This document shows, in pieces, positions 7,487 through 46,427 of a DNA stretch of 64,000 bases. Position numbers and translations under genes: made by a program. Position 1 is the first letter of the stretch. Each line of letters begins with the position of its first letter. The DNA comes from Gemmatimonadales bacterium. Lineage in GTDB: Bacteria > Gemmatimonadota > Gemmatimonadetes > Gemmatimonadales > GWC2-71-9. Location: NCBI GenBank assembly GCA_035280265.1, contig DATEGE010000143.1:2307-66306 (forward strand), in the 5' to 3' direction. Below the pieces are notes generated by a model. It was given only the letters and a program-made list of their open reading frames with translations. It had not been told where the DNA came from and did no database searches.

Positions 7487-8683
7487 ATGCTCCGCATCCG
7501 CGCCCGCTCCGTACACCCCGTCACGGCGCCGCCCATCGAGGACGGCGCCGTTCTCATTGACGAGCGCGGGGTCATCGCCGCGCTGGGCTCCAATGGGAAC
7601 GTTCCCAGGCCCACGGACGCGCGGGCGCTCGATTTTCCCGACGCGGTCCTGATGCCCGGTCTCGTCAACACGCACACGCACCTCGAGCTCACTCATCTCG
7701 CCGGCAAGGACGACGAGCGCGACTTCGCCAAGTGGATTCGGACGCTGCGCGCCCTCAAGGACGCGACGACGCCCGACGAGTTCGCGCACGCGGCAGAGCA
7801 GGGAGTGCGAGATGCGTGGGCCGCCGGAGTCACGTGCGTCGCGGACACGGGAAGCACCGGAGCCCCCATCGAGGCGCTCGCCCGGCTCGGCGGCCGAGGC
7901 ATCTATTACCAAGAGGTGTTCGGCCCCGACCCCGCGAAATGCGGCGCCAGTATGGGTGAGCTCGAGCAGGCCGTGCGTCGGCTCAGACCATACTCATGCG
8001 CACGCGTGCGCTTCGGTCTATCGCCGCACGCGCCGTACACCGTGAGCGAGCCGCTGTACCGCGCCGTGGCCGACTACGCCGGGCGAGAGGCGTTGCCGGT
8101 CGCGGTGCATCTCGCGGAGTCACGCGAGGAAACCCAGCTCGTGCACGACGGTACGGGGCCGTTCGCCGACGCGCTGCGCGCCCGGGGCATCTCAGTGGCG
8201 GCGCACAACTGCTCACCGGTCCAGTATCTCTTGCGACTTTGCGACGTGGAACGTGCGACGCCGTTGCTTTGCATCCACTGCGTGCAGGTGGACCGGAACG
8301 ACGTCGAGCTACTGAAGCGGGCCGGCGTGAGCGTAGCCCACTGTCCCCGCTCGAACCACGTGCACCAGCACGGCGCGGCCCCCCTGGCGGCCTTTCGGGC
8401 GGCTGGGCTCGCGGTCGGCCTGGGCACCGATTCAATGGTGAGCGTCGGCGATATCAGTCTATGGGCGGAGGCCACAGCGGCGGGGCTCGTGGGAGAGGAC
8501 GCGTTGCGAATGCTGACGCTCGAAGGCGCGCGAGCGTTGGGATTGGAGGGCGAGATCGGCTCTCTGGAGGTCGGGAAACAGGCGGACCTGGCGGTGTTTG
8601 ATCGCTTTCCGTCCGACCGTCCGGCCGTCCGACCGTCCGACGCTCTTCTCACTGTCGTCGCCGGCCGGGTGGTTCACGGCTAG
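7487..8683 (+). CDS. amidohydrolase superfamily protein (nucleobase/aminofutalosine/MTA deaminase-like)
   Basis: Metal-ligand pattern VNTHTHLELT (HxH), AVHLAES, IHCVQV, GLGTDS. 398 aa. Confidence 0.8.
   Translation: MLRIRARSVHPVTAPPIEDGAVLIDERGVIAALGSNGNVPRPTDARALDFPDAVLMPGLVNTHTHLELTHLAGKDDERDFAKWIRTLRALKDATTPDEFAHAAEQGVRDAWAAGVTCVADTGSTGAPIEALARLGGRGIYYQEVFGPDPAKCGASMGELEQAVRRLRPYSCARVRFGLSPHAPYTVSEPLYRAVADYAGREALPVAVHLAESREETQLVHDGTGPFADALRARGISVAAHNCSPVQYLLRLCDVERATPLLCIHCVQVDRNDVELLKRAGVSVAHCPRSNHVHQHGAAPLAAFRAAGLAVGLGTDSMVSVGDISLWAEATAAGLVGEDALRMLTLEGARALGLEGEIGSLEVGKQADLAVFDRFPSDRPAVRPSDALLTVVAGRVVHG
8611..8642. repeat. four tandem GTCCGACN octamers inside the amidohydrolase CDS
   Basis: GTCCGACC GTCCGGCC GTCCGACC GTCCGACG, translated in frame as ...FPSDRPAVRPSDALL. 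Confidence 0.9.
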
Positions 8684-8694
8684 ATTCTGGCCCC

Positions 8695-9153
8695 ATGAAG
8701 ACCCAGCGGCACGCCGCCATCTTGAAGATCGTTCGTTCCGCGACGGTGGCGAGTCAGGAGCGGCTGCGCGAGCTTCTGACAGCCGAGGGCTTCGACGTGA
8801 CGCAGGCGACGCTGTCGCGCGACATCCGCGAGTTGGGGCTCGCCAAGGTCGCGGCGCCGGACGGCGCGTCGCATTACGCGCCGCCTCTCGAGACCGGCAC
8901 CGCCATCCGCCCCCACCTCGAGCAGCTCCTGCCCACGCTGCTCGTTTCAGTCGAGGGCGTGGGACCACTGCTCGTGATGAAGACCCCCGCGGGGAGCGCG
9001 CAGGCGCTGGGGCTCGCGCTCGATGCGGCTGGCTGGAACGAAATCATCGGTACCATCGCGGGCGACGACGCCGTGCTCGTCATCACCAGGAGCGAGCGCG
9101 CCCGCCGCGCCGTGCATACTCGCCTGAAGGAGCTCGCCGGACTTCCGGCCTGA
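8695..9153 (+). CDS. argR: arginine repressor
   Basis: MKTQRHAAILKIVRSATVASQERLRELLTAEGFDVTQATLSRDIRELGLAKV (winged helix), plus C-terminal oligomerisation domain ...IGTIAGDDAVLVI. Confidence 0.93.
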   Translation: MKTQRHAAILKIVRSATVASQERLRELLTAEGFDVTQATLSRDIRELGLAKVAAPDGASHYAPPLETGTAIRPHLEQLLPTLLVSVEGVGPLLVMKTPAGSAQALGLALDAAGWNEIIGTIAGDDAVLVITRSERARRAVHTRLKELAGLPA

Positions 9154-9169
9154 CACCAAGGAGATCTCC

Positions 9170-9874
9170 ATGATGAATCGCCCGCTCGTGTTGCTCGCCG
9201 TGTGTTGCCTGGGTGGGGTGCCCGCAGCGGCGCCTGGCCAGAGCACGCACAACGCCCTGACCCCCACGGAGAAGGCCGCCGGCTGGCGCCTCTTGTTCGA
9301 CGGCAAGACCACCTCGGGGTGGCGCGGCTGGAAGAAGGACTCGATGCCCGCGGGCTGGCAGGTCGTCGACGGCGAGCTGACCCGCGTGGCCGCGGCCGGC
9401 GATATCATGACGCGGGACAAGTACCGCGACTTCGAGCTCTCGCTGCAGTGGAACATCGCCCCGGGCGGCAACAGCGGAATCTTCTACCGGGCGAGCGAAG
9501 ACGACGACGCGATCTACTGGAGCGCTCCGGAAATGCAGGTGCTGGACGACGCCAGACATCCCGACGGGCAGTCGCGGCTCACGTCTGCGGGCGCGGACTA
9601 CGACATCTATCCCTCCCCAGCGGGCGTCGTGAAGCCGGCGGGTGAATGGAACCAGGTCCGGCTGGTGGTCAAGGGCAACCACGTGGAGCACTGGCTCAAC
9701 GGCGTGAAGGTGGTCGAATACGAATTGGGGAGCCCCGACTGGGAGGCGCGCGTCAAGGCGAGCAAGTTCGCGCCGCACGTCCATTACGGGCGCAATCGCG
9801 AGGGGTACGTCGGCCTGCAGGATCACGGCGACCGCGTGGCGTACCGCGACATCAAGATCCGGGTGCTGCCGTGA
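9170..9874 (+). CDS. exported DUF1080 (3-keto-disaccharide hydrolase family) protein
   Basis: Signal peptide MMNRPLVLLAVCCLGGVPAAAPGQ. WRLLFDGKTTSGWRGW ... GLQDHGDRVAYRDIKIRVL. AAGGAG SD at 9158..9163. Confidence 0.8.
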   Translation: MMNRPLVLLAVCCLGGVPAAAPGQSTHNALTPTEKAAGWRLLFDGKTTSGWRGWKKDSMPAGWQVVDGELTRVAAAGDIMTRDKYRDFELSLQWNIAPGGNSGIFYRASEDDDAIYWSAPEMQVLDDARHPDGQSRLTSAGADYDIYPSPAGVVKPAGEWNQVRLVVKGNHVEHWLNGVKVVEYELGSPDWEARVKASKFAPHVHYGRNREGYVGLQDHGDRVAYRDIKIRVLP

Positions 9875-12461: not shown

Positions 12462-13160
12462 ATGCAGGGACTGGCCGCGACGCTGACCGATCACCCGCTC
12501 ATCGCGCTGGTCACGCTGTTCGGGGCGGGTCTCGTGACGAGCCTCACGCCGTGCATCTACCCGATGATCCCCATCACTGCCGGCATTCTGTCGGGAACGA
12601 GTGCAGGCACGCCGTCGCGCGGGCGCACCGCGCGACTTACACTCACGTATGCCGTGGGCCTCGCGCTGTTTTACGCGATCCTGGGCCTCGTGGCCGGTCT
12701 GTCGGGCACGTTGTTCGGCACCGTGAGCGCGAACCCATGGGCCCGCTTCGCGATCGGGAACCTGCTGCTGCTCTTCGGCCTTGCCATGCTGGACGTGATC
12801 CCCGTGACGGCGCCGCAGCGCTTGATGCAATGGGCCTCGGGGTTGGGTGGCGGCTCGTACCCAGCGGTGTTTCTCCTCGGAGCGACGTCCGGGATCGTCG
12901 CGGCGCCGTGCGGGGCACCGGCGTTCGCGGCGGTGCTCACGTGGGTCGCGGCGACGCGGAGCGGATTGCTCGGCTTCGTGTACTTATTCGTGTTCTCCTT
13001 GGGGATGACGGCGCTGCTCGTGGTGGTCGGCCTGTTCTCGGGCAGTCTGGCCGCGCTGCCACGAGCCGGTCAGTGGATGGTGTGGGTCAAGAAACTCGCT
13101 GGCGTGGTGCTGCTCGGCATGGCGGAGTACTATTTCATACAGATGGGAAAGGTGCTGTGA
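12462..13160 (+). CDS. ccdA: cytochrome c biogenesis/thiol-disulfide transporter CcdA (DsbD core family)
   Basis: 232-aa polytopic protein with the two conserved Cys contexts LTPCIYPMIP and AAPCGAPAF. Confidence 0.85.
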   Translation: MQGLAATLTDHPLIALVTLFGAGLVTSLTPCIYPMIPITAGILSGTSAGTPSRGRTARLTLTYAVGLALFYAILGLVAGLSGTLFGTVSANPWARFAIGNLLLLFGLAMLDVIPVTAPQRLMQWASGLGGGSYPAVFLLGATSGIVAAPCGAPAFAAVLTWVAATRSGLLGFVYLFVFSLGMTALLVVVGLFSGSLAALPRAGQWMVWVKKLAGVVLLGMAEYYFIQMGKVL

Positions 13161-13648
13161 TGCGATACGGATGGGTCGCGGCCGCGTTGCTGTGGCCGGC
13201 CGTCGTCAGCGGCCAGGACGTCGGCCTGTCGCTGGGGACCCAGGCACCCGTGGTGAGCGTGCAAGATCTCGACGGCAAGACCGTCGACCTGGGGCGATAC
13301 ATCGGCAAGGGCCCGGTGTTGCTTGAGTTCTGGGCCACGTGGTGCCCGGTGTGCGCCGCACTCGAGCCGGCGCTCAAAGACGCGCACGCCCGATACGGCG
13401 CGGCGGTGCCGTTCGTGGCCATCGGCGTGGCCGTGAACGAGACGCCGGCGTCGATCCGGCGCCACCTCGCAAGCCACCCCTTACCGTTCCCGGTGCTGTA
13501 CGACGCGAGCGGCGCGGCAGTGCGGGCGTTCGAGGCGCCCACGACGTCGTACATCGTTGTGCTGGATGGAGCGGGGAAGGTCAGCTACACCGGCACCGGG
13601 TCCGACCAGGACGTCGCGGCGGCGCTGCGGCGCGTGGCGAGCCGGTAG
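13160..13648 (+). CDS. exported TlpA/ResA-like thioredoxin-fold thiol:disulfide oxidoreductase
   Basis: ATG 13160 overlaps the ccdA stop. MRYGWVAAALLWPAVVSGQ signal. FWATWCPVCAAL (WCxxC). Confidence 0.85.
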   Translation: MRYGWVAAALLWPAVVSGQDVGLSLGTQAPVVSVQDLDGKTVDLGRYIGKGPVLLEFWATWCPVCAALEPALKDAHARYGAAVPFVAIGVAVNETPASIRRHLASHPLPFPVLYDASGAAVRAFEAPTTSYIVVLDGAGKVSYTGTGSDQDVAAALRRVASR

Positions 13649-13675: not shown

Positions 13676-13832
13676 GTGCAGCGTGGGGGTGGGGCTAGGG
13701 CGCCTACACTCGGGGGCACACCGAAACCCGCACCCCGAACGGGAGACTGGCCAAGCCGGTTTCGCGTCCCGACTTCTGAGTTCGGGGCGCCCTCGCGTGT
13801 AAAGCGCCCGGCGCCCCACCCCCACGCTGCAC
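13676..13832. repeat. 157-nt multi-stem long hairpin in a convergent intergenic region
   Basis: Outer perfect 20-bp stem GTGCAGCGTGGGGGTGGGGC (13676..13695) with GCCCCACCCCCACGCTGCAC (13813..13832). Inner stems GGGCGC/GCGCCC and CCCCGAAC (13733..13740) with GTTCGGGG (13780..13787). Confidence 0.85.
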
Positions 13833-13873: not shown

Positions 13874-14461
13874 TTACTCGGCCGGCTTCGGCGCGACGCG
13901 GTCGATCGCCGCCGCCAGGTCCTTGTACGACTGTGGGTCGATCTCCCGGAACGGCGTCATCCGGTACGCGATCTTGCCGTCCGGCCCCACCACAAACAGC
14001 GTCCGATTGTCGACGCCGTACTTGGCGCTACGGGCGCCGTAGGTCGTGCCGACGACGCCACCAGAATCGCTCGCGAACAGGATCGGCAATTCGTCATCGC
14101 GCGCCCATGCCGCGAGCGTGTCAGCGGCATCCACGCTGACGCCGATCGGCACCACCCCACGGCCATCGTGAAACAGCTGTGCGTACTGATCACGGTACGC
14201 ATGCATTTGGATCGTTCACCCTTTGGTGCGCGCCTTGTAGAAGAAGGCGAGCACCACCGTCTTCCCCTTGAAATCGCTTAGGTGGATCGGCGCCTTGAGG
14301 GTGCCGTAGCGCGTCGCGCCCGGCAGCGTGAAGTCGGGCGCCACCGCGCCGACCTGGAGCGGCTCGGGCTCCTTGGGGGTGGGCGCCTGCTGTGCCTGCA
14401 GGGTCGGCGCGACGAACGCGGCCACCAGCGGCAGCGCACGAGCGACGGTTGAGCAGCTCAT
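13874..14461 (-). CDS. exported BCP/PrxQ-type peroxiredoxin; candidate selenoprotein with in-frame TGA at 14216..14218 in place of the peroxidatic Cys
   Basis: Track ORFs 14216..14581 and 13874..14206 are in one frame, separated by TGA. Joined sequence ...KTVVLAFFYKARTKG[TGA]TIQMHAYRDQYAQL... matches the BCP active site FYPKAxTPGCTxQ. GGGAGG SD precedes ATG 14461. Signal peptide MSCSTVARALPLVAAFVAPTLQA. Confidence 0.6.
14180..14201 (-). promoter_or_regulatory. SECIS-like stem-loop downstream of the in-frame UGA
   Basis: mRNA U-GCGUAC-[CGUGAUCA]-GUACGC-A. A 7-bp stem and 8-nt loop containing GU. The loop begins about 21 nt after the UGA. Confidence 0.45.
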
Positions 14462-14472
14462 AGACCTCCCTT

Positions 14473-16077
14473 TCAGTCCTTGAGCGAATGGTAATTCACA
14501 TCCAGCACACGCAGCCGCTCGAGATGCGTGCTGAGCCGGGCGGTGAAGTCCGCAAAGTCCCGGCCCGCTTTCGGCGTCCACAGGACTTCAGCGAGCGCGC
14601 ACGCCCGCGGGAACGCCATGTACTCCACCCGCTTCGGATCTGGAATGTACTCCGTCCACACTTGTCCCTGCGACCCCAGCACGTGACGCGCTTCGGCGTC
14701 CGTGAGCGCTGCCGGGACCGGCTCATAGGAGTACACCGTATCGAGCGGCAGGTAGCCGCCGATCGCGAGGGGCTCGCTGGTCGTGTCGACGGACTGGTAG
14801 TGGTCGAAGTACGTATGTGACCCGGGCGCCATCACCACGTCGTGCCCGGCGCGCGCCGCGGCGATGCCACCGTCGGTCCCCCGCCACGACATGACGACCG
14901 CGTTGGGCGCAAGCCCGCCCTCGAGGATCTCATCCCAGCCCACCAGCCGGCGGCCGTGCGCCGTGAGGAACTCGTCCATGCGGCGCGTGAAGTAGCTCTG
15001 CAGCTCGTCCTCGTTCTTCAAGCCGAGCTCGCGGATGCGCGACTGCGCCAGCGCGCTCGCTTTCCATTGTTTCTTCGGCGCCTCGTCGCCCCCGATGTGG
15101 ATCCAGGGTCCGGGAAACAGCGCCATCACGGCGGTGAGCACGCTCTGATAGAACTTGATGGTGGGCTCGCCGGGGTTGAGGATGTTCTCGTCCACGCCCC
15201 AAGCGGTCCACACCGGCAACGTGTCCCCCGTGTTGCCGAGCTCGGGGTAGGACGCGATCGCCGCCTGCGAATGGCCCGGCATCTCGATCTCGGGCACGAT
15301 CGTAATGAAGCGTGGCTGCGCGTAGGCCACGATCTCGCGCACGTCGTCCTGAGTGTAGAACCCCCCGTGCGGCTGGCCGTCGAACCGCCACTTGGTCGAG
15401 TCGTCTTCGTCCGGCCGGCCGATGATGGTCTGCCGGCGCCACGCGCCGATCTGCGTGAAGCGTGGGTACTGCGGGATCTCGATGCGCCAGCCCTGATCTT
15501 CCGTCAGGTGCCAATGAAACCGGTTGAACTTATGGAGCGCCAGGAGGTCCAGGTACTTCTTCACGAACTCCTTGGGCATGAAATGGCGCCCCACGTCGAG
15601 GTGCATGCCACGCCAGCTGAACCGCGGGTAATCCTCGATGGACACGGCCGGGACGGTCCACGCCACGGCCGCGACCTTCGCTTGCCGGTAAATCGCGGGT
15701 GGCAGGAGCTGACGCAGCGTCTGGATCGCGTAGAACGCCCCGGCGGGCCGGCGCGCGCGGATTGTCACGCGCGCCGGGCTGACGTCGAGCCGATAGCCTT
15801 CGTCGCCCAGCATCGCGAGCGTCGAATCGAGGCGAATCGAGATCGTCCGAGCGCCACCTCCGGCTGGCGCGGTCGACGCCACGGTCAGGCGGAATCCGGT
15901 GGCGGGGTAGAGATAGTCGGCGAGCGTCCCGCCGAGCGGGCGACTCGCGGCGTCTGTCGTGATGACCGTCGAGGTGGTCAGCGTGAAGCTCCCCGAGCCT
16001 GGCGTCAAATGCACGGGCCGGGGAACGATTGCGAAACCGGAATCGAGCGCGAACGCGACCACGAGCGCGGCCAGCAT
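14473..16077 (-). CDS. beta-N-acetylhexosaminidase (GH20)
   Basis: IEDYPRFSWRGMHLDVGRHF, FNRFHWHLTEDQGWR, IEMPGHSQAA, IHIGGDEAPK. ATG 16077 overlaps the upstream stop (ATGA). Confidence 0.9.
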   Translation of the reverse strand: MLAALVVAFALDSGFAIVPRPVHLTPGSGSFTLTTSTVITTDAASRPLGGTLADYLYPATGFRLTVASTAPAGGGARTISIRLDSTLAMLGDEGYRLDVSPARVTIRARRPAGAFYAIQTLRQLLPPAIYRQAKVAAVAWTVPAVSIEDYPRFSWRGMHLDVGRHFMPKEFVKKYLDLLALHKFNRFHWHLTEDQGWRIEIPQYPRFTQIGAWRRQTIIGRPDEDDSTKWRFDGQPHGGFYTQDDVREIVAYAQPRFITIVPEIEMPGHSQAAIASYPELGNTGDTLPVWTAWGVDENILNPGEPTIKFYQSVLTAVMALFPGPWIHIGGDEAPKKQWKASALAQSRIRELGLKNEDELQSYFTRRMDEFLTAHGRRLVGWDEILEGGLAPNAVVMSWRGTDGGIAAARAGHDVVMAPGSHTYFDHYQSVDTTSEPLAIGGYLPLDTVYSYEPVPAALTDAEARHVLGSQGQVWTEYIPDPKRVEYMAFPRACALAEVLWTPKAGRDFADFTARLSTHLERLRVLDVNYHSLKD

Positions 16078-24461: not shown

Positions 24462-24663
24462 TCCGCTTCATCGTTTCCACTGCATCCGCCGCGGCGCGCG
24501 CCGTGAGCGCCATATACGTGATCGACGGATTCTGGCACGCCGACGACGCCATGCGCGCGCCGTCGGTCAGGAACAGGTTTTTCACGTCGTGGCACTGGTT
24601 GTGAGCGTTCAGGGCGGCGGCGACCGAGTGGAGGAGTTCGCGGCGGTTCATGAGCGTCCCCAA
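24451..24663 (-). pseudogene. C-terminal remnant of a GMC oxidoreductase
   Basis: 70-aa ORF ...NAHNQCHDVKNLFLTDGARMASSACQNPSITYMALTARAA parallels the C-terminus of the intact GMC gene (...NRWCQAHDCKNLFVTDGGPFVSQADKNPTWTILALSMRT). No FAD-binding N-terminal part exists upstream; a stop lies just 5'. Confidence 0.7.
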
Positions 24664-24756
24664 GATCAGTCCGATTCGGGCGGTTCGCTAGGGAACCTCG
24701 GTGCGAATCGCGCACCGCGTCTTCCTTGTGGGGAGATTCCCTGGCGCGCGCAGCGG

Positions 24757-24784
24757 TTGACAGGTCGCCCAACCTCTGTATGTT
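24757..24784 (+). promoter_or_regulatory. sigma70-type promoter of argG-argH
   Basis: TTGACA (24757..24762), 16-nt spacer, TATGTT (24779..24784), about 36 nt upstream of the argG ATG. Confidence 0.6.
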
Positions 24785-24804
24785 TATGCACTACTGTGCA
24801 TAAA
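24783..24804. promoter_or_regulatory. perfect palindrome, candidate ArgR operator (ARG box) overlapping the -10 element
   Basis: TTTATGCAC-TACT-GTGCATAAA: 9-bp perfect arms immediately upstream of argG. argR is present in this window. Confidence 0.55.
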
Positions 24805-24819
24805 CCTGCGAGGGACGAA

Positions 24820-26052
24820 ATGGGGCCGTTGGTGGTTCTCGCGTATTCGGGCGGACTCGACACGTCGGCGATCGTACCGTGGCTGCGCGAGCGGTACGGC
24901 GCCCGGGTCCTGTGCTTCGCCGCCGACGTGGGGCAGGGCGCGGGCGAGCTGAACGGCCTCGTCGAGAAAGCGAAGCGCTCCGGCGCCGTCGACTGCGTGA
25001 TCGAGGACTTGCGCGAGGAATTCGTGCGGGATTTCGTGTTCCCCACGCTCCGCGCCGGCGCCGTATACGCACGCACCTACCTGCTCGGCACCGCCATGGC
25101 CAGGCCCGTCATGGCCGCGCACCACGTCGCGCTCGCCCAACAGGCCGGCGCCCAGGCGGTCGCCCATGGCTGTACCGGTAAGGGCAACGATCAGGTCCGC
25201 TTCGAGCTCACCTACGCCGCGTTAGCCCCCGACCTGCAGGTCATCGCGCCGTGGCGGGAGTGGCAGTTCGAGGGCCGCGAGGATCTCATCGAATACGTGA
25301 AGACGAAGGGCGTTCCCGTGCAGGCGACCGTCGAGAAGCCGTACTCCACCGACCGCAATCTCTGGCATTGCTCCCACGAGGGCGGCATCCTCGAGGATCC
25401 GGCGCGCGAGCCCCCGGAACACATCTTCGTCATGACCAAGGATCCCCTCGAAGCCCCCGACTTGCCCGCGGTAGTCGAGATCGAGTTCGCCGAGGGAACC
25501 CCGGTCGCGGTAGACCGCATGCCGCTCGGCCCGGTGGAGCTGCTCGAGCGGTTGAACGAGATCGCGGGGGAGCACGGGGTGGGCCGCGCCGACGTGGTCG
25601 AGGATCGCCTGGTGGGCATGAAGTCGCGGGGCGTGTACGAGACGCCGGGCGGCACGGTGCTGCACGCGGCGCATCGCGAGCTGGAGCAGCTGGTGCTCGA
25701 TCGGCGCACCCTCCGGCTCAAGGACGAGCTGGCACTACAGTACGCCGACCTCGTGTATGACGGGCGCTGGTGGACGCCTGAGCGGCAAGCCCTCGATGCG
25801 GCGGTGGCGAGCACGCAAAAGCACGTGAGCGGGGTCGTGCGGCTCAAGCTGTTCAAGGGCGGCCTCACCGTCGCGGGACGCCAGAGCCCCCACGCACTGT
25901 ACCAGCCTTCCTACGCGACGTTCGGCAAGGACAACGTCTACAATCAGCAGGACGCGGAAGGCTTCATTCATCTGTACGGACTGTCGATCAAGATCGGGGC
26001 GGGACTCGAGGCGGCGCGGCGGCAACCGGAAGTCGGCGCGGCGGCGGACTGA
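24820..26052 (+). CDS. argG: argininosuccinate synthase
   Basis: MGPLVVLAYSGGLDTSAIVPWL (N-type ATP pyrophosphatase SGGLDTS), ...AHGCTGKGNDQVRFE... Start at ATG 24820 inside ORF 24589..26052. Confidence 0.95.
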   Translation: MGPLVVLAYSGGLDTSAIVPWLRERYGARVLCFAADVGQGAGELNGLVEKAKRSGAVDCVIEDLREEFVRDFVFPTLRAGAVYARTYLLGTAMARPVMAAHHVALAQQAGAQAVAHGCTGKGNDQVRFELTYAALAPDLQVIAPWREWQFEGREDLIEYVKTKGVPVQATVEKPYSTDRNLWHCSHEGGILEDPAREPPEHIFVMTKDPLEAPDLPAVVEIEFAEGTPVAVDRMPLGPVELLERLNEIAGEHGVGRADVVEDRLVGMKSRGVYETPGGTVLHAAHRELEQLVLDRRTLRLKDELALQYADLVYDGRWWTPERQALDAAVASTQKHVSGVVRLKLFKGGLTVAGRQSPHALYQPSYATFGKDNVYNQQDAEGFIHLYGLSIKIGAGLEAARRQPEVGAAAD

Positions 26053-27500
26053 TGCCGCGGTCCGGCGACACACCTTCCCCTCCGCCGACTCCGGCCGCCC
26101 CAGCCCCAGCCCCCGCCCCTCATCAAATGTGGGGCGGTCGGTTCTCGATCGGGCCGAGCGAGGCGCTTGATGCCTTGAATCGCAGCCTGCCCGTGGACCA
26201 TCGCCTCTGGCCGCAAGACGTCACCGCGAGTAAGGCCTGGGTGCACGCACTGGGGCGGGTCCCGGTGCTCACCCCTGCCGAGGAGGCTCAGCTGCTCGAC
26301 GGGCTCGACCGCGTCGCCGAGCGGCTTGCCGACGGCGCCGCCGTGGGCGCTCCTGACGAGGACGTCCATACGCTGGTGGAACGATTGCTGTATGAAGAAG
26401 TGGGCGCGGTAGCCGGCAAGCTGCACACCGGCCGGTCTCGCAACGATCAGGTGGTGACCGATCTGCGGTTGTGGACGCTCGACGCGATCGAACAACTGGA
26501 TTCGGACTTGTGCCTCTTGGGTCGAGCTCTTACAACGCGCGCGCACGAGGGCATCGACCTCCTCCTTCCAGGATACACGCACGGCCAGCGTGCCCAGCCG
26601 GTGCGCTGGGGCTACGTGCTGCTGGCGCACGCTTGGCCGCTCGTGCGCGATCGCCAACGTCTTGCGGACGCGCGGCGCCGGGTGGCGGAGCTGCCGCTGG
26701 GGTCCGGGGCGCTCGCAGGATCGGGGTTTGCCGTCGACCGAGTGCTGCTGAAAGAAGCCCTCGGACTTCGCTCGGTGTCTGCGAATGCCCTGGACGCCAC
26801 CGGCGATCGCGACTTCGTGGCCGAAGTACTGTTCGCCCTCGCCCTGGTGGGAACACACGTCTCGCGCTTCGCAGCCGAGCTGGTGTCGTACGCGAGCGCG
26901 GAGTTCGGCTTCGTACGGCTGGCGGACGACTTCAGCACCGGCTCGAGCCTCCTGCCCCAGAAGCGCAACCCCGACGTGTTGGAGCTGGCGCGGGCGAAAT
27001 CGGGGCGGCTGTTCGGCGACTTGATCGCGCTGCTCACCACGTTGAAGGGCCTTCCAGCCGGCTACAGCAAGGATTTGCAGGAGGACAAGGCGCTGCTGTT
27101 CGACGCGTTCGATACCCTCGGTCTGGTATTGCCCGCCGTCACCGGCGCCGTGACGACGCTGAGAGCGGACGCTGAGCGCATGCGGGGAGCGCTCGACGCC
27201 TCGCTCCGCGCCACCGATCTGGCCGACCGGTTGGTCGAAGCCGGAGTCCCGTTCCGGGAGAGTCACGGCCTTGTCGGCCGGTTGGTGCGTGAGGCCGAGC
27301 GTTCCGGCGTACCGATCGATCGGGTGCCCAGTGCCGTGGCAGGGGCGATCCACCCGGCGCTGGTAGGTGCCCTGTCGCAGCTTGGCACTTGGGAGGAATC
27401 GGTGGAGAGCCGGGCGACCCCGGGCGGGGCCTCGCGCCAGTCGGTGCTCGATCAGATGGAGGCGCTGAAGACTGCATTCGCCGAGGGGGGAGGGACTTAA
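26052..27500 (+). CDS. argH: argininosuccinate lyase
   Basis: MWGGRFS..., ...GSSLLPQKRNPDVLEL (fumarate-lyase signature). ATG 26052 overlaps the argG stop. Alternative start at MWGGRF (26127). Confidence 0.93.
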   Translation: MPRSGDTPSPPPTPAAPAPAPAPHQMWGGRFSIGPSEALDALNRSLPVDHRLWPQDVTASKAWVHALGRVPVLTPAEEAQLLDGLDRVAERLADGAAVGAPDEDVHTLVERLLYEEVGAVAGKLHTGRSRNDQVVTDLRLWTLDAIEQLDSDLCLLGRALTTRAHEGIDLLLPGYTHGQRAQPVRWGYVLLAHAWPLVRDRQRLADARRRVAELPLGSGALAGSGFAVDRVLLKEALGLRSVSANALDATGDRDFVAEVLFALALVGTHVSRFAAELVSYASAEFGFVRLADDFSTGSSLLPQKRNPDVLELARAKSGRLFGDLIALLTTLKGLPAGYSKDLQEDKALLFDAFDTLGLVLPAVTGAVTTLRADAERMRGALDASLRATDLADRLVEAGVPFRESHGLVGRLVREAERSGVPIDRVPSAVAGAIHPALVGALSQLGTWEESVESRATPGGASRQSVLDQMEALKTAFAEGGGT

Positions 27501-27540: not shown

Positions 27541-27660
27541 GTGGCCGTCCTCCGGGAGGTGCGTGGAGGTCGGTGAAGGCTAGTGGAGGTTGGTGGGAAG
27601 CACCCTCACCGTCCTGCACAGTCCTCCACCATCCTCCACCGACCTCCGGATGGCGGCCAC
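27541..27660. repeat. imperfect ~60-nt-arm inverted repeat of GGTGGAGG / CCTCCACC decamer words upstream of the HNH gene
   Basis: GTGGCCGTCCTCCGGGAGGTGCGTGGAGGTCGGTGAAGGCTAGTGGAGGTTGGTGGG ... GTCCTCCACCATCCTCCACCGACCTCCGGATGGCGGCCAC. Confidence 0.75.
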
Positions 27661-27681
27661 GTTTGCCACCGGAGAGTCCCT

Positions 27682-28230
27682 GTGCGCTGCTTGGCGCTCA
27701 ATGCCTCGTTCGAGCCGCTGACCATGGTGCCCGTACGGCGGGCGCTGCGGCTCGTGATCGACCGCAAGGCGGAGATCGTCGAAGCAGACGGTTCCGTCGT
27801 GCACAGCGAGCGGCTGGCCATTCCCCGGCCGGCCGTGATCCGACTCGTCAAGTTCGTGCACGTCCCCCGCCGCTTCCGCCGTCAAGTTACCAACACCTTC
27901 CTGTTCGCCCGCGACAACTACCGGTGCCAGTTCTGCGGGCGGAGTCAGCCGGAGCTGCGGCATCGCGAGTGCCTCACCCGGGATCACCTGGTCCCGCTGT
28001 CGCGCGGGGGGACCAACGCCTGGACCAACGTGCTCACGGCGTGCTCGAGCTGCAACACGCGCAAGGGGAACCTCCTCCCCGAAGAGGCGGGCATGCATCC
28101 GCTGCGGCCTCCCTTCGAGCCGCACTTCGTGCACCTCGCATGGGCGGTGCGTCGCCTCACGTCGATCCAGTCCAAGTACATTCGGCTGTTTTACGGCGGC
28201 GAGGTGCTGGCGACGTTGGAAGCGTTGTGA
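27682..28230 (+). CDS. HNH endonuclease family protein
   Basis: GTG 27682 VRCLALNASFEPL... ; ...YRCQFCGR...LTRDHLVPLSRGGTNAWTNVLTACSSCNTRKGN (HNH with Zn-finger cysteines). Confidence 0.85.
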   Translation: MRCLALNASFEPLTMVPVRRALRLVIDRKAEIVEADGSVVHSERLAIPRPAVIRLVKFVHVPRRFRRQVTNTFLFARDNYRCQFCGRSQPELRHRECLTRDHLVPLSRGGTNAWTNVLTACSSCNTRKGNLLPEEAGMHPLRPPFEPHFVHLAWAVRRLTSIQSKYIRLFYGGEVLATLEAL

Positions 28231-43475: not shown

Positions 43476-46427
43476 TCAGTCCGCCAGAACGCTCGCCCGC
43501 TCCACGCGCACCGCGCAGCACTTCAGCTCGGCCATCTTCGCATAAGGATCGAGCACGGGATTCGTGAGCAGGTTCGCCGCCGCTTCCCTGAAGTGGAACG
43601 GCACGAACACTTGCCCGCGAGCGACGCGCTCGGAAATGCGACAGGAGCTGACCATCGAGTTGCGGCGCGACGTGAGCCGCACGGCGTCGCCATCCTGCAC
43701 GCCCAGGGCGCGAGCATCATCGGGATGGATCTCGACGATCGGTGTGGGCTCCCGCTGATCCAAGCCGGCGGCGCGCCGGGTCATCGTCCCGGTGTGCCAG
43801 TGGTACAATTGGCGGCCCGTGTTCATGACGAACGGGTACTGCTCGTCCGGGAGCTCGACCGGCGGCGCGTACTCCACCGCCACGAACGCCCCACGTCCGT
43901 CCGCCGTGGGGAACGGGTCATCGAACAGGAAGGCACGTCCAGGGGAGTCCGCGGTCGGCACCGGGTACTGCAGCCCCGCGCCCTCCAGCCTCTCGTACGT
44001 GACCCCGTGCCAGGAGGGCGTCACAGCGGTGATCTCCCGCATCACGTCCCGCGCCGCCGTGAACGGTGTCTGCAAGCCGAGGCGCGTGGACAGCTCGATG
44101 AGGATCTCCAGGTCGCCGCGCGCCTCGCCCGGCGGTGCGACGGCGGCGTGGGAGAGCTGGATGCGGCGCTCCGTGTTGACGAACGTACCCGACTTCTCCG
44201 CGAAGCTCGCGCCCGGGAGCACGACGTCGGCATAGCGGGCGGTTTCGGTGAGGAACAGGTCCTGCACCGCAAGGAACTCGAGCTCCTGGAACCAGTGCTC
44301 CGCGTGCGCGATGTCGGGGTCCGAGATGATGGGGTTTTCACCCATGATGTACATCCCGCGGACGCCACTCTCCTCCTTCACGATCTCGGTCACCATCAGC
44401 CCCGCCTTCAGGGAGAGCGACTCGGCCGGCACGCCCCACGCCTGGGCGTACTCCGCCCGGATGTGCGGGTCTGTGACGGACCGATAGTCGGTGTACACGA
44501 AGGGAATCGCGCCCACGTCCGACGCCCCCTGGACGTTGTTCTGGCCACGCACCGGCATCATGGCGGCGCCCCAGCGGCCGATCATGCCGCAGGCGAGCAT
44601 GAGATTCAGGAGGGAGGTGACGAGATCGGTGCCGTTCGCGTGCTGCGTCAGCCCCATGGCCCAGAGCGTGCTCGTATTCGGCCCGCGCGCGTAGATCTCC
44701 GCCGCCTCGCGGATCCGCTCGGCGGGCACGCCGGTGATCTTGGCGGCCACGTCGGGCGTCATGGCCCGGACCGACTCTCGCACGGCGTCGAAGTCGCGCA
44801 TACGGTCGGCGATAAAGCGGCGATGCTCGAGCCCCTGGTCGATGATGTGGTGCAGCATCGCGTTGAACAGCGCGACGTCGGTGCCGGGCTGCATCTGCAG
44901 GTGAACGTCCGCCCGGGCGGCGAGCTCAGTCTTGCGCGGATCGGCCACGATCAGGGTGGCGCCCCGCGCGTGGGCGCGCTTGATCGCCGCCCCGAACACG
45001 GGGTGGGATTCAGTGGTGTTGGCGCCCGCGATGAAGATGACGTCCGCCGCGTGCTCCACCTCGCGCATCGAGCCCGACGCCGCGGACGTATTGAGCGCCC
45101 GTTGCATCGCCGCCACCGACGTGGAGTGGCACAGTCGGGTGCAGTGGTCGATGTTGTTGGTGCCGAGGGCCGCGCGGAACATCCGCATCATGAGGTAGTT
45201 CTCCTCGTTGGAGCATTTCGCCGAGGAGAAGCAGGCCAGCGAGTCGGGTCCCCGCTCGCGCTTGAGGCGCAGCAGCTCCTGCGCCGTGAGCTCCATCGCC
45301 TCTTCCCACGTGGCCTCGCGGAACGGCTCGTACCACGAAGGTGGCGTGGCCACGCGATCGCGAATGTCCAGGTCCAGCCGCTCGAGCAGCGGCAGGTCTC
45401 GCACCGCTTTCCCCACCGAGCGTGGCGGAGCGGCCGGCTTCGGCTTCTGGCCCTCGCCCTCGATCGTCTGCCACGGCCCACCGCGGCGGTTCTGCCCCGT
45501 TCGGCCGCGCCACACCCAACGGCCCCGCTCCTTCTCCCACCCCTTGCGGATGAGCGGCTTGGTGAGGCGATCGTGATGCTGCGGAAAGTCGTACCCGAAC
45601 CGGCCTTTGACGCACGTGGAACCCTGGTTCGGCGTGTCGAGCTCGATGTCGGGAGAGGTGACGCGCACGACACTGTTGTTCGCGACGTGCAGATCGACCT
45701 GGCACCCGACGCCGCAATAGGGGCACACCGAACGCACGGTTTTCGTCGGGTGGCGGATCTGCTCGGGCGCGAACCGCTGCCGTGGCATCACCTCGAAGAT
45801 CGCGCCAGTCGGACACACACGCACGCACTCGCCGCACCAGGTGCATCCCGCCTTGTCGGCGTCGCCGTCCGCCCCGACTATGATCTCGGCGTGCTCGCCG
45901 CGCTGCGCGACGTCGAGCACGCCGACCACCTGGATGTCTTCGCACGCCCGTACGCAACGGGTGCACAGGATGCAGGTGCTCATGTCGTGCCGGATCATCG
46001 AGTCGCCCGGACGCTCGTCGCCGTGGCGGAGCGGCAGATCGCGCTGCTCGAGCGGCGCCGGCACCACTTCGTAGCGGACCACGTACCGCTCGAACTCGTT
46101 GCGGGGCTGGGCTCGACCGCCGTTCAGCAGATGATCGCCCGGGTAGCGCTCGAGCAGCAGCCGCAGCACCCCTTTGCGATTCTCGACCGCCGAGCGCGAC
46201 TCGGTGTGCACCACCATCCCGTCCGCCACCTTGGTGGCGCACGCCGGAAGCAGCTTGGCCTGTCCCTCGACCGACACCAGGCAGATTCGGCAGTTGCCGA
46301 CGATCGGCAGCTTGGGATACCAGCACAGAGTCGGGATGTCGGTGATTCCCGCCGCCCGGGCGGCGTCGAGGATCGTTTGGTTGGGGTCGGCGGTGACGGT
46401 GCGGCCGTTGACGGTGAGAGTCACCAT
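43476..46427 (-). CDS. YrhE/FdhA-like molybdopterin oxidoreductase (formate dehydrogenase alpha-like, with N-terminal 2Fe-2S and 4Fe-4S domains)
   Basis: MVTLTVNGRTV...CRICLV (2Fe-2S), CILCTRCVRAC and CTWCGECVRVCP (4Fe-4S), CPYCGVGC (Mo-bisPGD 4Fe-4S), TRLCHSTSV (Cys Mo-ligand position). Confidence 0.88.
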   Translation of the reverse strand: MVTLTVNGRTVTADPNQTILDAARAAGITDIPTLCWYPKLPIVGNCRICLVSVEGQAKLLPACATKVADGMVVHTESRSAVENRKGVLRLLLERYPGDHLLNGGRAQPRNEFERYVVRYEVVPAPLEQRDLPLRHGDERPGDSMIRHDMSTCILCTRCVRACEDIQVVGVLDVAQRGEHAEIIVGADGDADKAGCTWCGECVRVCPTGAIFEVMPRQRFAPEQIRHPTKTVRSVCPYCGVGCQVDLHVANNSVVRVTSPDIELDTPNQGSTCVKGRFGYDFPQHHDRLTKPLIRKGWEKERGRWVWRGRTGQNRRGGPWQTIEGEGQKPKPAAPPRSVGKAVRDLPLLERLDLDIRDRVATPPSWYEPFREATWEEAMELTAQELLRLKRERGPDSLACFSSAKCSNEENYLMMRMFRAALGTNNIDHCTRLCHSTSVAAMQRALNTSAASGSMREVEHAADVIFIAGANTTESHPVFGAAIKRAHARGATLIVADPRKTELAARADVHLQMQPGTDVALFNAMLHHIIDQGLEHRRFIADRMRDFDAVRESVRAMTPDVAAKITGVPAERIREAAEIYARGPNTSTLWAMGLTQHANGTDLVTSLLNLMLACGMIGRWGAAMMPVRGQNNVQGASDVGAIPFVYTDYRSVTDPHIRAEYAQAWGVPAESLSLKAGLMVTEIVKEESGVRGMYIMGENPIISDPDIAHAEHWFQELEFLAVQDLFLTETARYADVVLPGASFAEKSGTFVNTERRIQLSHAAVAPPGEARGDLEILIELSTRLGLQTPFTAARDVMREITAVTPSWHGVTYERLEGAGLQYPVPTADSPGRAFLFDDPFPTADGRGAFVAVEYAPPVELPDEQYPFVMNTGRQLYHWHTGTMTRRAAGLDQREPTPIVEIHPDDARALGVQDGDAVRLTSRRNSMVSSCRISERVARGQVFVPFHFREAAANLLTNPVLDPYAKMAELKCCAVRVERASVLAD

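Follow-up and report, generated by a model that had tools for sequence, protein, structure and literature searches.

Peroxiredoxins that carry selenocysteine (Sec) in a T-x-x-U active site are an established family of bacterial selenoproteins, whose prototype, PrxU, was described in 2001 and for which 78 organisms were counted in a survey of 2016. According to the literature, the Pro of the longer PxxxTxxC/U motif is highly conserved in these enzymes, and few aerobes are said to have selenoproteins. The RNA signal that accompanies Sec codons in bacteria, the bacterial selenocysteine insertion sequence (bSECIS), has been put into a model which, as PMC13188914 gives it, requires a loop of 3-9 nt that has G as its first or second nucleotide and then G or U, a stem of 4-16 bp, a minimum free energy (MFE) no higher than -7.5 kcal/mol, and 16-37 nt from UGA to loop. 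For peroxide reduction in the cell envelope, the closest case studied is the pathway of Caulobacter crescentus, which leads from ScsB through TlpA to the peroxiredoxin PprX (PMC3322552). Here, a gene at 14461..13874, on the minus strand of a 64-kb stretch of DNA from a Gemmatimonadales bacterium, is compared with these systems; the stretch as a whole is called the window, and all positions follow its numbering.

We read 14461..13874 as one intact gene which, with a probability that we put at roughly 0.86, encodes a secreted peroxiredoxin with Sec as its peroxidatic residue. A preliminary description of the locus had proposed a selenoprotein here and had noted that T-x-x-U peroxiredoxin-like selenoproteins are known in bacteria, which the family around PrxU bears out. 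The parts of the gene are the following.

14461..13874, minus strand: complete candidate selenoprotein gene, as judged by sequence, translation, Pfam AhpC-TSA, PDB alignments and orthologues
14465..14470, minus strand: Shine-Dalgarno-like GGGAGG, 3 nt ahead of the ATG at 14461
14393..14461, minus strand: putative signal peptide region, residues 1-23 (MSCSTVARALPLVAAFVAPTLQA), with a cut predicted before QQ, by inspection by eye
14216..14218, minus strand: in-frame UGA, read as Sec, at the peroxidatic Cys column of T-x-x-C (T79-K-G-U82)
14202..14215, minus strand: spacer of 14 nt between UGA and hairpin (ACGAUCCAAAUGCA), with constrained synonymous sites in the codon table
14180..14201, minus strand: bacterial SECIS-type hairpin, with a 7-bp stem (14201..14195 / 14186..14180) and an 8-nt loop, CGUGAUCA, at 14194..14187

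The split gene and its relatives

Read as an exported one-Sec peroxiredoxin, the gene has 195 codons, from the ATG at 14461..14459 through the presumed Sec codon, UGA, at codon 82 and a further 113 codons, to the TAA stop at 13876..13874. In the list of open reading frames (ORFs) it appears as two minus-strand entries in the same frame, 14216..14581 and 13874..14206, whose sole separator is the TGA at 14218..14216, and the translation joined from the ATG at 14461 runs ...KTVVLAFFYKARTKG, the stop, and TIQMHAYRDQYAQL.... In phmmer alignments, the stop column coincides with the peroxidatic Cys of solved BCP-type peroxiredoxins, the query 'artkgCTiqm' facing 'aftqvCTkem' of 2ywn. When Cys is substituted for the stop, the product matches Pfam AhpC-TSA (PF00578) with E=1e-27 and 96.9 bits, against a cut-off of 26, as well as Redoxin (2e-16), and the conserved Arg of the AhpC/TSA domain is present (R153). 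Both initial claims about this anatomy hold: the sequence and the ORF list confirm that the TGA alone divides the gene, and the alignments, to solved peroxiredoxins and to 103 Cys-type homologues alike, place it exactly at the peroxidatic Cys. A reassigned genetic code is excluded because this genome uses TGA as its normal stop: of 43 Pfam-supported genes in the window, 30 end with it, among them the GH20 gene just upstream, which stops with the TGA at 14475..14473, 12 nt before the peroxiredoxin ATG.

Relatives were collected by scanning GTDB species, each represented by a single genome, which gave 80 loci, nearly all from Gemmatimonadales or from metagenome-assembled genomes (MAGs) of Gemmatimonadota, and by the addition of 80 metagenome loci. 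The catalytic column is TGA in 78 of the 79 motif-bearing GTDB species loci, the sole TGC locus being a Longimicrobiales genome; with the metagenome loci included, the tally for this column comes to 150 unique TGA forms and 104 Cys forms. The TGA relatives span about 60-90% protein identity. The protein search brought up about 95 Cys-type homologues of full length (FFP[KR]ARTxGC) together with fragments of 110-112 residues, all of which start MHAYRDQY and are 80-90% identical to the C-terminal piece, and which represent split genes in the relatives; among the best 120 matches in a collection of 5.8 billion proteins, there is no full-length entry for the TGA gene. Other residues in the catalytic column of database proteins have their own origins: W is the TGA as translated by a gene caller, one L is a TTA on a contig of coverage 1.6, and read-level catalogues are the source of R and of a second L.

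Three individual loci deserve mention in this context. The TTA just named (L084 331) is followed by an intact hairpin and is probably a lesion or an error, as is the TAA that replaces the Tyr codon seven codons before the TGA in another locus (L031 3178). A MAG labelled Acidobacteria gp6 (L069, QHWJ01000199.1) holds a TGA form that is typical of Gemmatimonadales and has the same neighbors, which may reflect mis-binning or gene transfer.

The reading frame is constrained as protein on either side of the TGA. Among 152 distinct TGA genes, mean pairwise differences at codon positions 1/2/3 amount to 0.149/0.129/0.458 over the 45 codons before the TGA and to 0.216/0.167/0.441 over codons +14..+40 after it, a pattern by which both sides bear the signature of selection on the protein. 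The next stop follows 108-122 codons past the TGA in 150 of the 152 sequences, and the remaining two run off their contigs. The preliminary description had pointed to conservation after the TGA and had suggested scoring Cys versus TGA among orthologues; the third-position excess and the lack of extra stops over 108-122 codons agree with the former, and the comparison strongly supports the candidate, as the TGA is kept in 150 distinct relatives and Cys-type homologues exist. From these alignments we conclude that the UGA is decoded and not terminal, a conclusion that is untouched by the absence of visible Sec machinery discussed below.

A second column separates the two forms. The Pro of PxxxTxxC (codon 75, 14237..14239) is Tyr in the window and Tyr, Phe or Ile in 150 of 150 TGA forms, and it is kept in 103 of 104 Cys forms. 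The cause of the change from Pro to Tyr/Phe could be structural or translational. One relative, P0015 (L086 5240 / L087 3910), is the only form that combines Tyr with TGC; it lacks the hairpin, has the same TlpA-like and DsbD_TM neighbors, and may be a Sec-to-Cys revertant. Elsewhere in the motif, Ser replaces the Thr of T-x-x-U (RARSKGU) in the TGA forms of L063, L096, L098, L107, L114, L120 and L140.

The hairpin behind the TGA

The preliminary description had also placed a stem-loop with SECIS geometry at 14180..14201 and raised the question of its covariation with the TGA, and both points find support. The hairpin, U-GCGUAC-[CGUGAUCA]-GUACGC-A, starts 14 nt past the UGA and is the predicted minimum-energy fold, with an MFE of -8.6 or -9.4 kcal/mol. 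Its 8-nt loop, which begins C-G-U, its 7 bp and its distance of 21 nt from UGA to loop all fall within the bSECIS ranges given in PMC13188914, and so does the MFE. As a single sequence the fold is unremarkable, a 76-nt segment scoring z=+0.35 against shuffles; the significance of the hairpin comes from the comparison with relatives, since one sequence alone proves nothing.

In that comparison, codons +6..+11 (GCG TAC CGT GAT CAG TAC) show zero synonymous variation among 78 distinct genes, as against about 1 bit of synonymous entropy in the neighboring codons, and the Arg codon within the hairpin is CGT in 78 of 78, a codon found in at most 5 of 78 at other Arg positions. RNAalifold, applied to the relatives, arrives unaided at exactly the 7-bp helix; all 525 alignment cells are paired, and slid controls collapse. 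The helix closes with U-A in 41 sequences and with C-G in 34; no sequence has changed on one side only, and either pair is found next to both residues, His and Asn, that codon +5 can encode. A parsimony count on a neighbor-joining tree, rough because the tree is noisy, suggests many switches of this pair. In the larger set, 9 of 146 unique TGA forms deviate within the 22 nt, seven of them in the loop and two with a U..C closing pair.

Cys-form DNA was available for only four to five controls, since the metagenome scan gave mostly TGA forms, and the hairpin consensus occurs in none of them. Two of these (L088 and L115) encode the same A-Y-R-D-Q-Y through GCC TAY CGC GAC CAG TAY, by which 2-3 of the 7 pairs can form. 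Taken with the compensatory U-A/C-G closing pair, this amounts to a strict coupling of hairpin and TGA, the covariation that had been asked about, and on such comparative grounds the hairpin behaves as a SECIS element.

Constraint on nucleotides is also seen around the helix. Within the spacer, ACG is used in 71 and CAA in 72 of 78 genes. Four codons before the TGA, at 14228..14230, the rare Arg codon CGA occurs in 52 of 78 TGA forms, whereas elsewhere in these genes no Arg position has it in more than 4 of 78, a bias that implies nucleotide constraint upstream of the UGA as well; the window itself has CGC here, a minority variant (14 of 78). No convincing further hairpin of similar loop turned up behind a TGA, and a generic scan of 1.4 Mb for other in-frame TGA genes returned only junctions of adjacent genes and further copies of the peroxiredoxin.

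Decoding of the TGA

Several observations weigh against Sec insertion in a secreted enzyme. Neither the 64-kb window nor about 1.4 Mb of flanking Gemmatimonadales DNA contains selA, selB, selD or tRNA-Sec; these stretches are a small fraction of any genome, so that the missing genes do not count as absence. More specifically, Rfam and ARAGORN gave no match in the window, ARAGORN found only two tRNA-Asn genes in all loci, a Pfam scan of the rest of the window detected no Sec machinery, and tblastn with E. coli SelA, SelB and SelD against window and loci produced a single weak match, in L062, which turned out to be release factor 3 (714 bits) and not SelB. The window does encode a formate dehydrogenase alpha subunit at 43476..46427 on the minus strand, uninterrupted, with 748 bits to TIGR01591 and N-terminal 2Fe-2S/4Fe-4S domains. 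At its Mo-ligand motif, ...TRLCHSTSV..., it has Cys and not Sec, so the enzyme to which the Sec trait most often owes its persistence is not a selenoprotein here. The literature searched yielded no paper that links Gemmatimonadota with Sec use or sel genes, and the data of three surveys gave no more than the name of G. aurantiaca T-27 in a list of genomes covered. Within the gene, Tyr stands where Sec-peroxiredoxins have their highly conserved Pro, so that T-x-x-U is present and the full P-x-x-x-T-x-x-U is not, and export is judged by eye alone. Finally, of the strong ribosome-binding site initially proposed, the GGGAGG ahead of the ATG at 14461 is there, at a spacing of 3 nt that is short.

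The lack of visible machinery and the Cys-type formate dehydrogenase are also what favors the best-surviving alternative, in which the hairpin stimulates Sec-independent read-through of the UGA by a near-cognate Trp or Cys tRNA. We regard this as improbable. With Trp as the catalytic residue the enzyme would be dead, yet purifying selection acts on the entire protein in 150 lineages, and the hairpin fits the SelB-type bSECIS model on all four of its points. To our knowledge, moreover, the only read-through hairpins conserved in bacteria at catalytic Cys columns are SECIS elements, which counts against decoding by an ordinary tRNA.

That a nonsense mutation has simply killed a peroxiredoxin gene is suggested at first sight by the gene callers, which split the gene, and by the NCBI entry for a 110-aa 'redoxin domain-containing protein'. 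The comparison of orthologues refutes this reading, to which we give very little credence: the same TGA occurs in 150 unique relatives as distant as 60-90% protein identity would indicate, third-position differences exceed those at first and second positions on both sides of it, and no stop intervenes for 108-122 codons.

Equally hard to credit is a split enzyme, composed of an exported N-terminal piece of 81 residues and a piece of 110 residues that starts at the ATG at 14206, an in-frame codon four codons past the TGA which the gene callers do use. The stretch T-I/V-Q-M right behind the TGA is conserved and recurs unchanged in the Cys forms, which argues against a separate start at the internal ATG: its Met belongs to a family motif shared with Cys forms (C-T-I-Q-M), and the three codons between TGA and ATG are conserved as protein. 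No conserved Shine-Dalgarno sequence precedes the ATG at 14206, the K/R/S-G codons there being variable, and the second piece would have neither a signal peptide nor a catalytic residue.

A sequencing or assembly error, with a true codon of TGC or TGT, would need only one base change, and L084 does have TTA here at coverage 1.6, but we consider an error practically negligible, as the TGA is identical in 150 relatives and in three independent assemblies of the strain (two in ENA with the same split, and the NCBI MAG record HKW41202.1, where the C-terminal piece is annotated as 'redoxin domain-containing protein [Gemmatimonadales bacterium]', 110 aa) and goes together with the hairpin and with Tyr/Phe at -7, an association that no error could produce.

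Under the favored reading of Sec insertion, a ribosome would arrive at the UGA of codon 82 while the hairpin 14 nt downstream binds SelB carrying Sec-tRNA(Sec); insertion of Sec would then replace termination, and 113 more codons would be translated. The N-terminal signal peptide would take the protein across the inner membrane, where its selenolate would reduce peroxides and become selenenic acid. As the mature protein has no cysteine, recycling would fall to an outside thiol, and electrons might pass from cytoplasmic thioredoxin to CcdA, then to a TlpA-like protein (WCPVC), and from there to the selenenic acid of the peroxiredoxin. This relay is proposed because of the conserved gene neighborhood described in the next section and the Caulobacter precedent of ScsB, TlpA and PprX.

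Enzyme type, gene neighborhood and described systems

The preliminary description called the enzyme BCP-type. Its active site does align with that type, and the label is nevertheless only approximate, because the protein is equally near to AhpE, falls below the NCBIfam Bcp cut-off and lacks the resolving Cys. Against the Bcp equivalog (NCBIfam NF006960) it scores 59.6 bits, with a cut-off of 140 (the Cys relative P0015 scores 53.5 bits), and against the PrxU equivalog (NF040737) 64.1 bits, with a cut-off of 270. The best sequence matches among solved structures are 2ywn (3.5e-12) and AhpE (3e-9). The structure model used was the AlphaFold model of P0015 (pLDDT 89), that is, of a Cys relative and not of the window protein; it matches AhpE of M. 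tuberculosis with a TM score of 0.89 at 32% identity and Sulfolobus Bcp4 with a TM score of 0.84 and a better E-value. At the position of the BCP resolving Cys (catalytic Cys +5) the protein has Met (U-T-I-Q-M-H), and no other Cys occurs in the family core in 254 of 254 sequences, whether of Sec or Cys type. With this single redox residue, a one-Cys or one-Sec enzyme needs an external reductant.

Export is suggested by the N-termini of the protein, of its orthologues and of the Cys forms, which by eye show a basic residue, a hydrophobic stretch of 12-15 residues and a site of the A-x-A-Q type. Candidates for the reductant lie next to the gene, in convergent orientation.

13160..13648, plus strand: TlpA/ResA-like exported thioredoxin with WCPVC and a hydrophobic N-terminus of its own (Pfam; NCBIfam ResA-like, 2.4e-18)
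12462..13160, plus strand: CcdA/DsbD-type membrane thiol-disulfide transporter (Pfam DsbD_TM; NCBIfam DsbD core, 7.9e-40)

The product of 12462..13160 has both transmembrane Cys, in LTPCIYP and AAPCGAP. Among genome loci with room for them, the convergent TlpA-like gene is found in 67 of 73 and the CcdA gene in 63 of 68, and the pair also adjoins Cys forms. Because the peroxiredoxin is almost always paired with these two genes, a periplasmic relay for peroxide reduction is the likely context, and by analogy with Caulobacter we infer that the TlpA-like protein would be the direct reductant and CcdA the inlet for electrons from the cytoplasm. The suggestion that the gene closes a sugar-oxidation operon is not upheld: in only 8 of 66 loci is GH20 the next gene upstream, so that this context is incidental, and it is the convergent pair, TlpA-like and CcdA, that stays with the peroxiredoxin.

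Between the convergent peroxiredoxin and TlpA-like genes, at 13676..13832, lies an imperfect palindrome of about 157 nt with perfect 20-nt arms (GTGCAGCGTGGGGGTGGGGC) and an RNA fold of -113.7 kcal/mol (z=-7.4). Its arms are absent elsewhere in the window and in 165 other loci, and the intergenic gap is about 160 nt shorter in the closest relatives, for which reason the palindrome looks like an insertion; it is perhaps a MITE-like element (miniature inverted-repeat transposable element) or a bidirectional terminator. In one complete Gemmatimonadales chromosome (OY970192.1, locus L062), the gene for release factor 3 (prfC, 714 bits), at 8239..9834 of that locus, stands directly upstream of the TGA-form peroxiredoxin. 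Release factor 3 acts in termination, and the adjacency is probably a coincidence. Further along the window, an HNH endonuclease ORF (27583..28230, plus strand) directly follows the argG-argH pair (24589..27500).

Taken together, the sequences describe what appears to be a new, unannotated clade of Sec-peroxiredoxins with a changed active-site motif, probable export and a conserved reductant module. Public records break these genes in two or list them as a truncated 'redoxin' or 'peroxiredoxin', and the correction applies to at least 150 distinct sequences. The clade would represent a selenoprotein that is kept throughout an abundant soil order and exported to the oxidising cell envelope, against the rarity of such proteins in aerobes, and its very uniform hairpin would supply a defined SECIS for a phylum without one described. 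Sec and Cys orthologues stand side by side, coupled to the change from Pro to Tyr/Phe, and so offer a comparison of what selenium buys a peroxiredoxin. A wider proposal is that the Gemmatimonadales, an order not recorded as selenium users, keep the Sec trait, including a periplasmic one-Sec peroxidase with a dedicated CcdA-TlpA relay and a Cys-to-Sec switch coupled to the loss of the active-site Pro; we hold this to be possible, though somewhat short of an even chance, and if true it would amount to a natural Sec/Cys experiment on the choice of selenium in an oxidising compartment.

Among the described systems, PrxU of Eubacterium acidaminophilum is alike in its AhpC/TSA fold and in having a UGA for Sec at the peroxidatic T-x-x-C column, and the PrxU family also shares the hairpin directly downstream and the existence of Cys-type homologues. 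The gene described here differs in its putative signal peptide, in Tyr/Phe for the motif Pro, and in its host order, Gemmatimonadales, for which no Sec use is reported in the literature searched. The score of 64 bits against the PrxU cut-off of 270 assigns it to another branch of the superfamily, and the change from Cys to Sec was probably independent of that in PrxU. AhpE, the 1-Cys peroxiredoxin of M. tuberculosis, is alike in its single redox residue and near in sequence and, by the model of the Cys relative, in fold; AhpE and the archaeal and bacterial BCP-PrxQ proteins are cytoplasmic enzymes with Cys, whereas the protein read here would be exported and have Sec.

With respect to the RNA signal, the hairpin resembles the consensus model of bSECISearch, for which E. 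coli fdhF is the studied case, in its site within the coding region directly after the UGA, and in loop size, stem length, loop G-U, spacing and stability. It has no sequence similarity to the E. coli SECIS elements, its binding of SelB is a prediction, and its constraint, unlike that of the model, reaches into the spacer and to the CGA codon four codons upstream. The Caulobacter pathway of ScsB, TlpA and PprX (PMC3322552), in turn, sets a peroxiredoxin of the envelope beside a TlpA-type thioredoxin, likewise exported, and a transporter of the DsbD family, a trio that the genes here would match if the putative signal peptide of the peroxiredoxin acts as one. In the Gemmatimonadales version, which is known from genes alone, a minimal CcdA takes the place of ScsB, the peroxiredoxin would have Sec and has no second Cys, and the three genes are adjacent and convergent.

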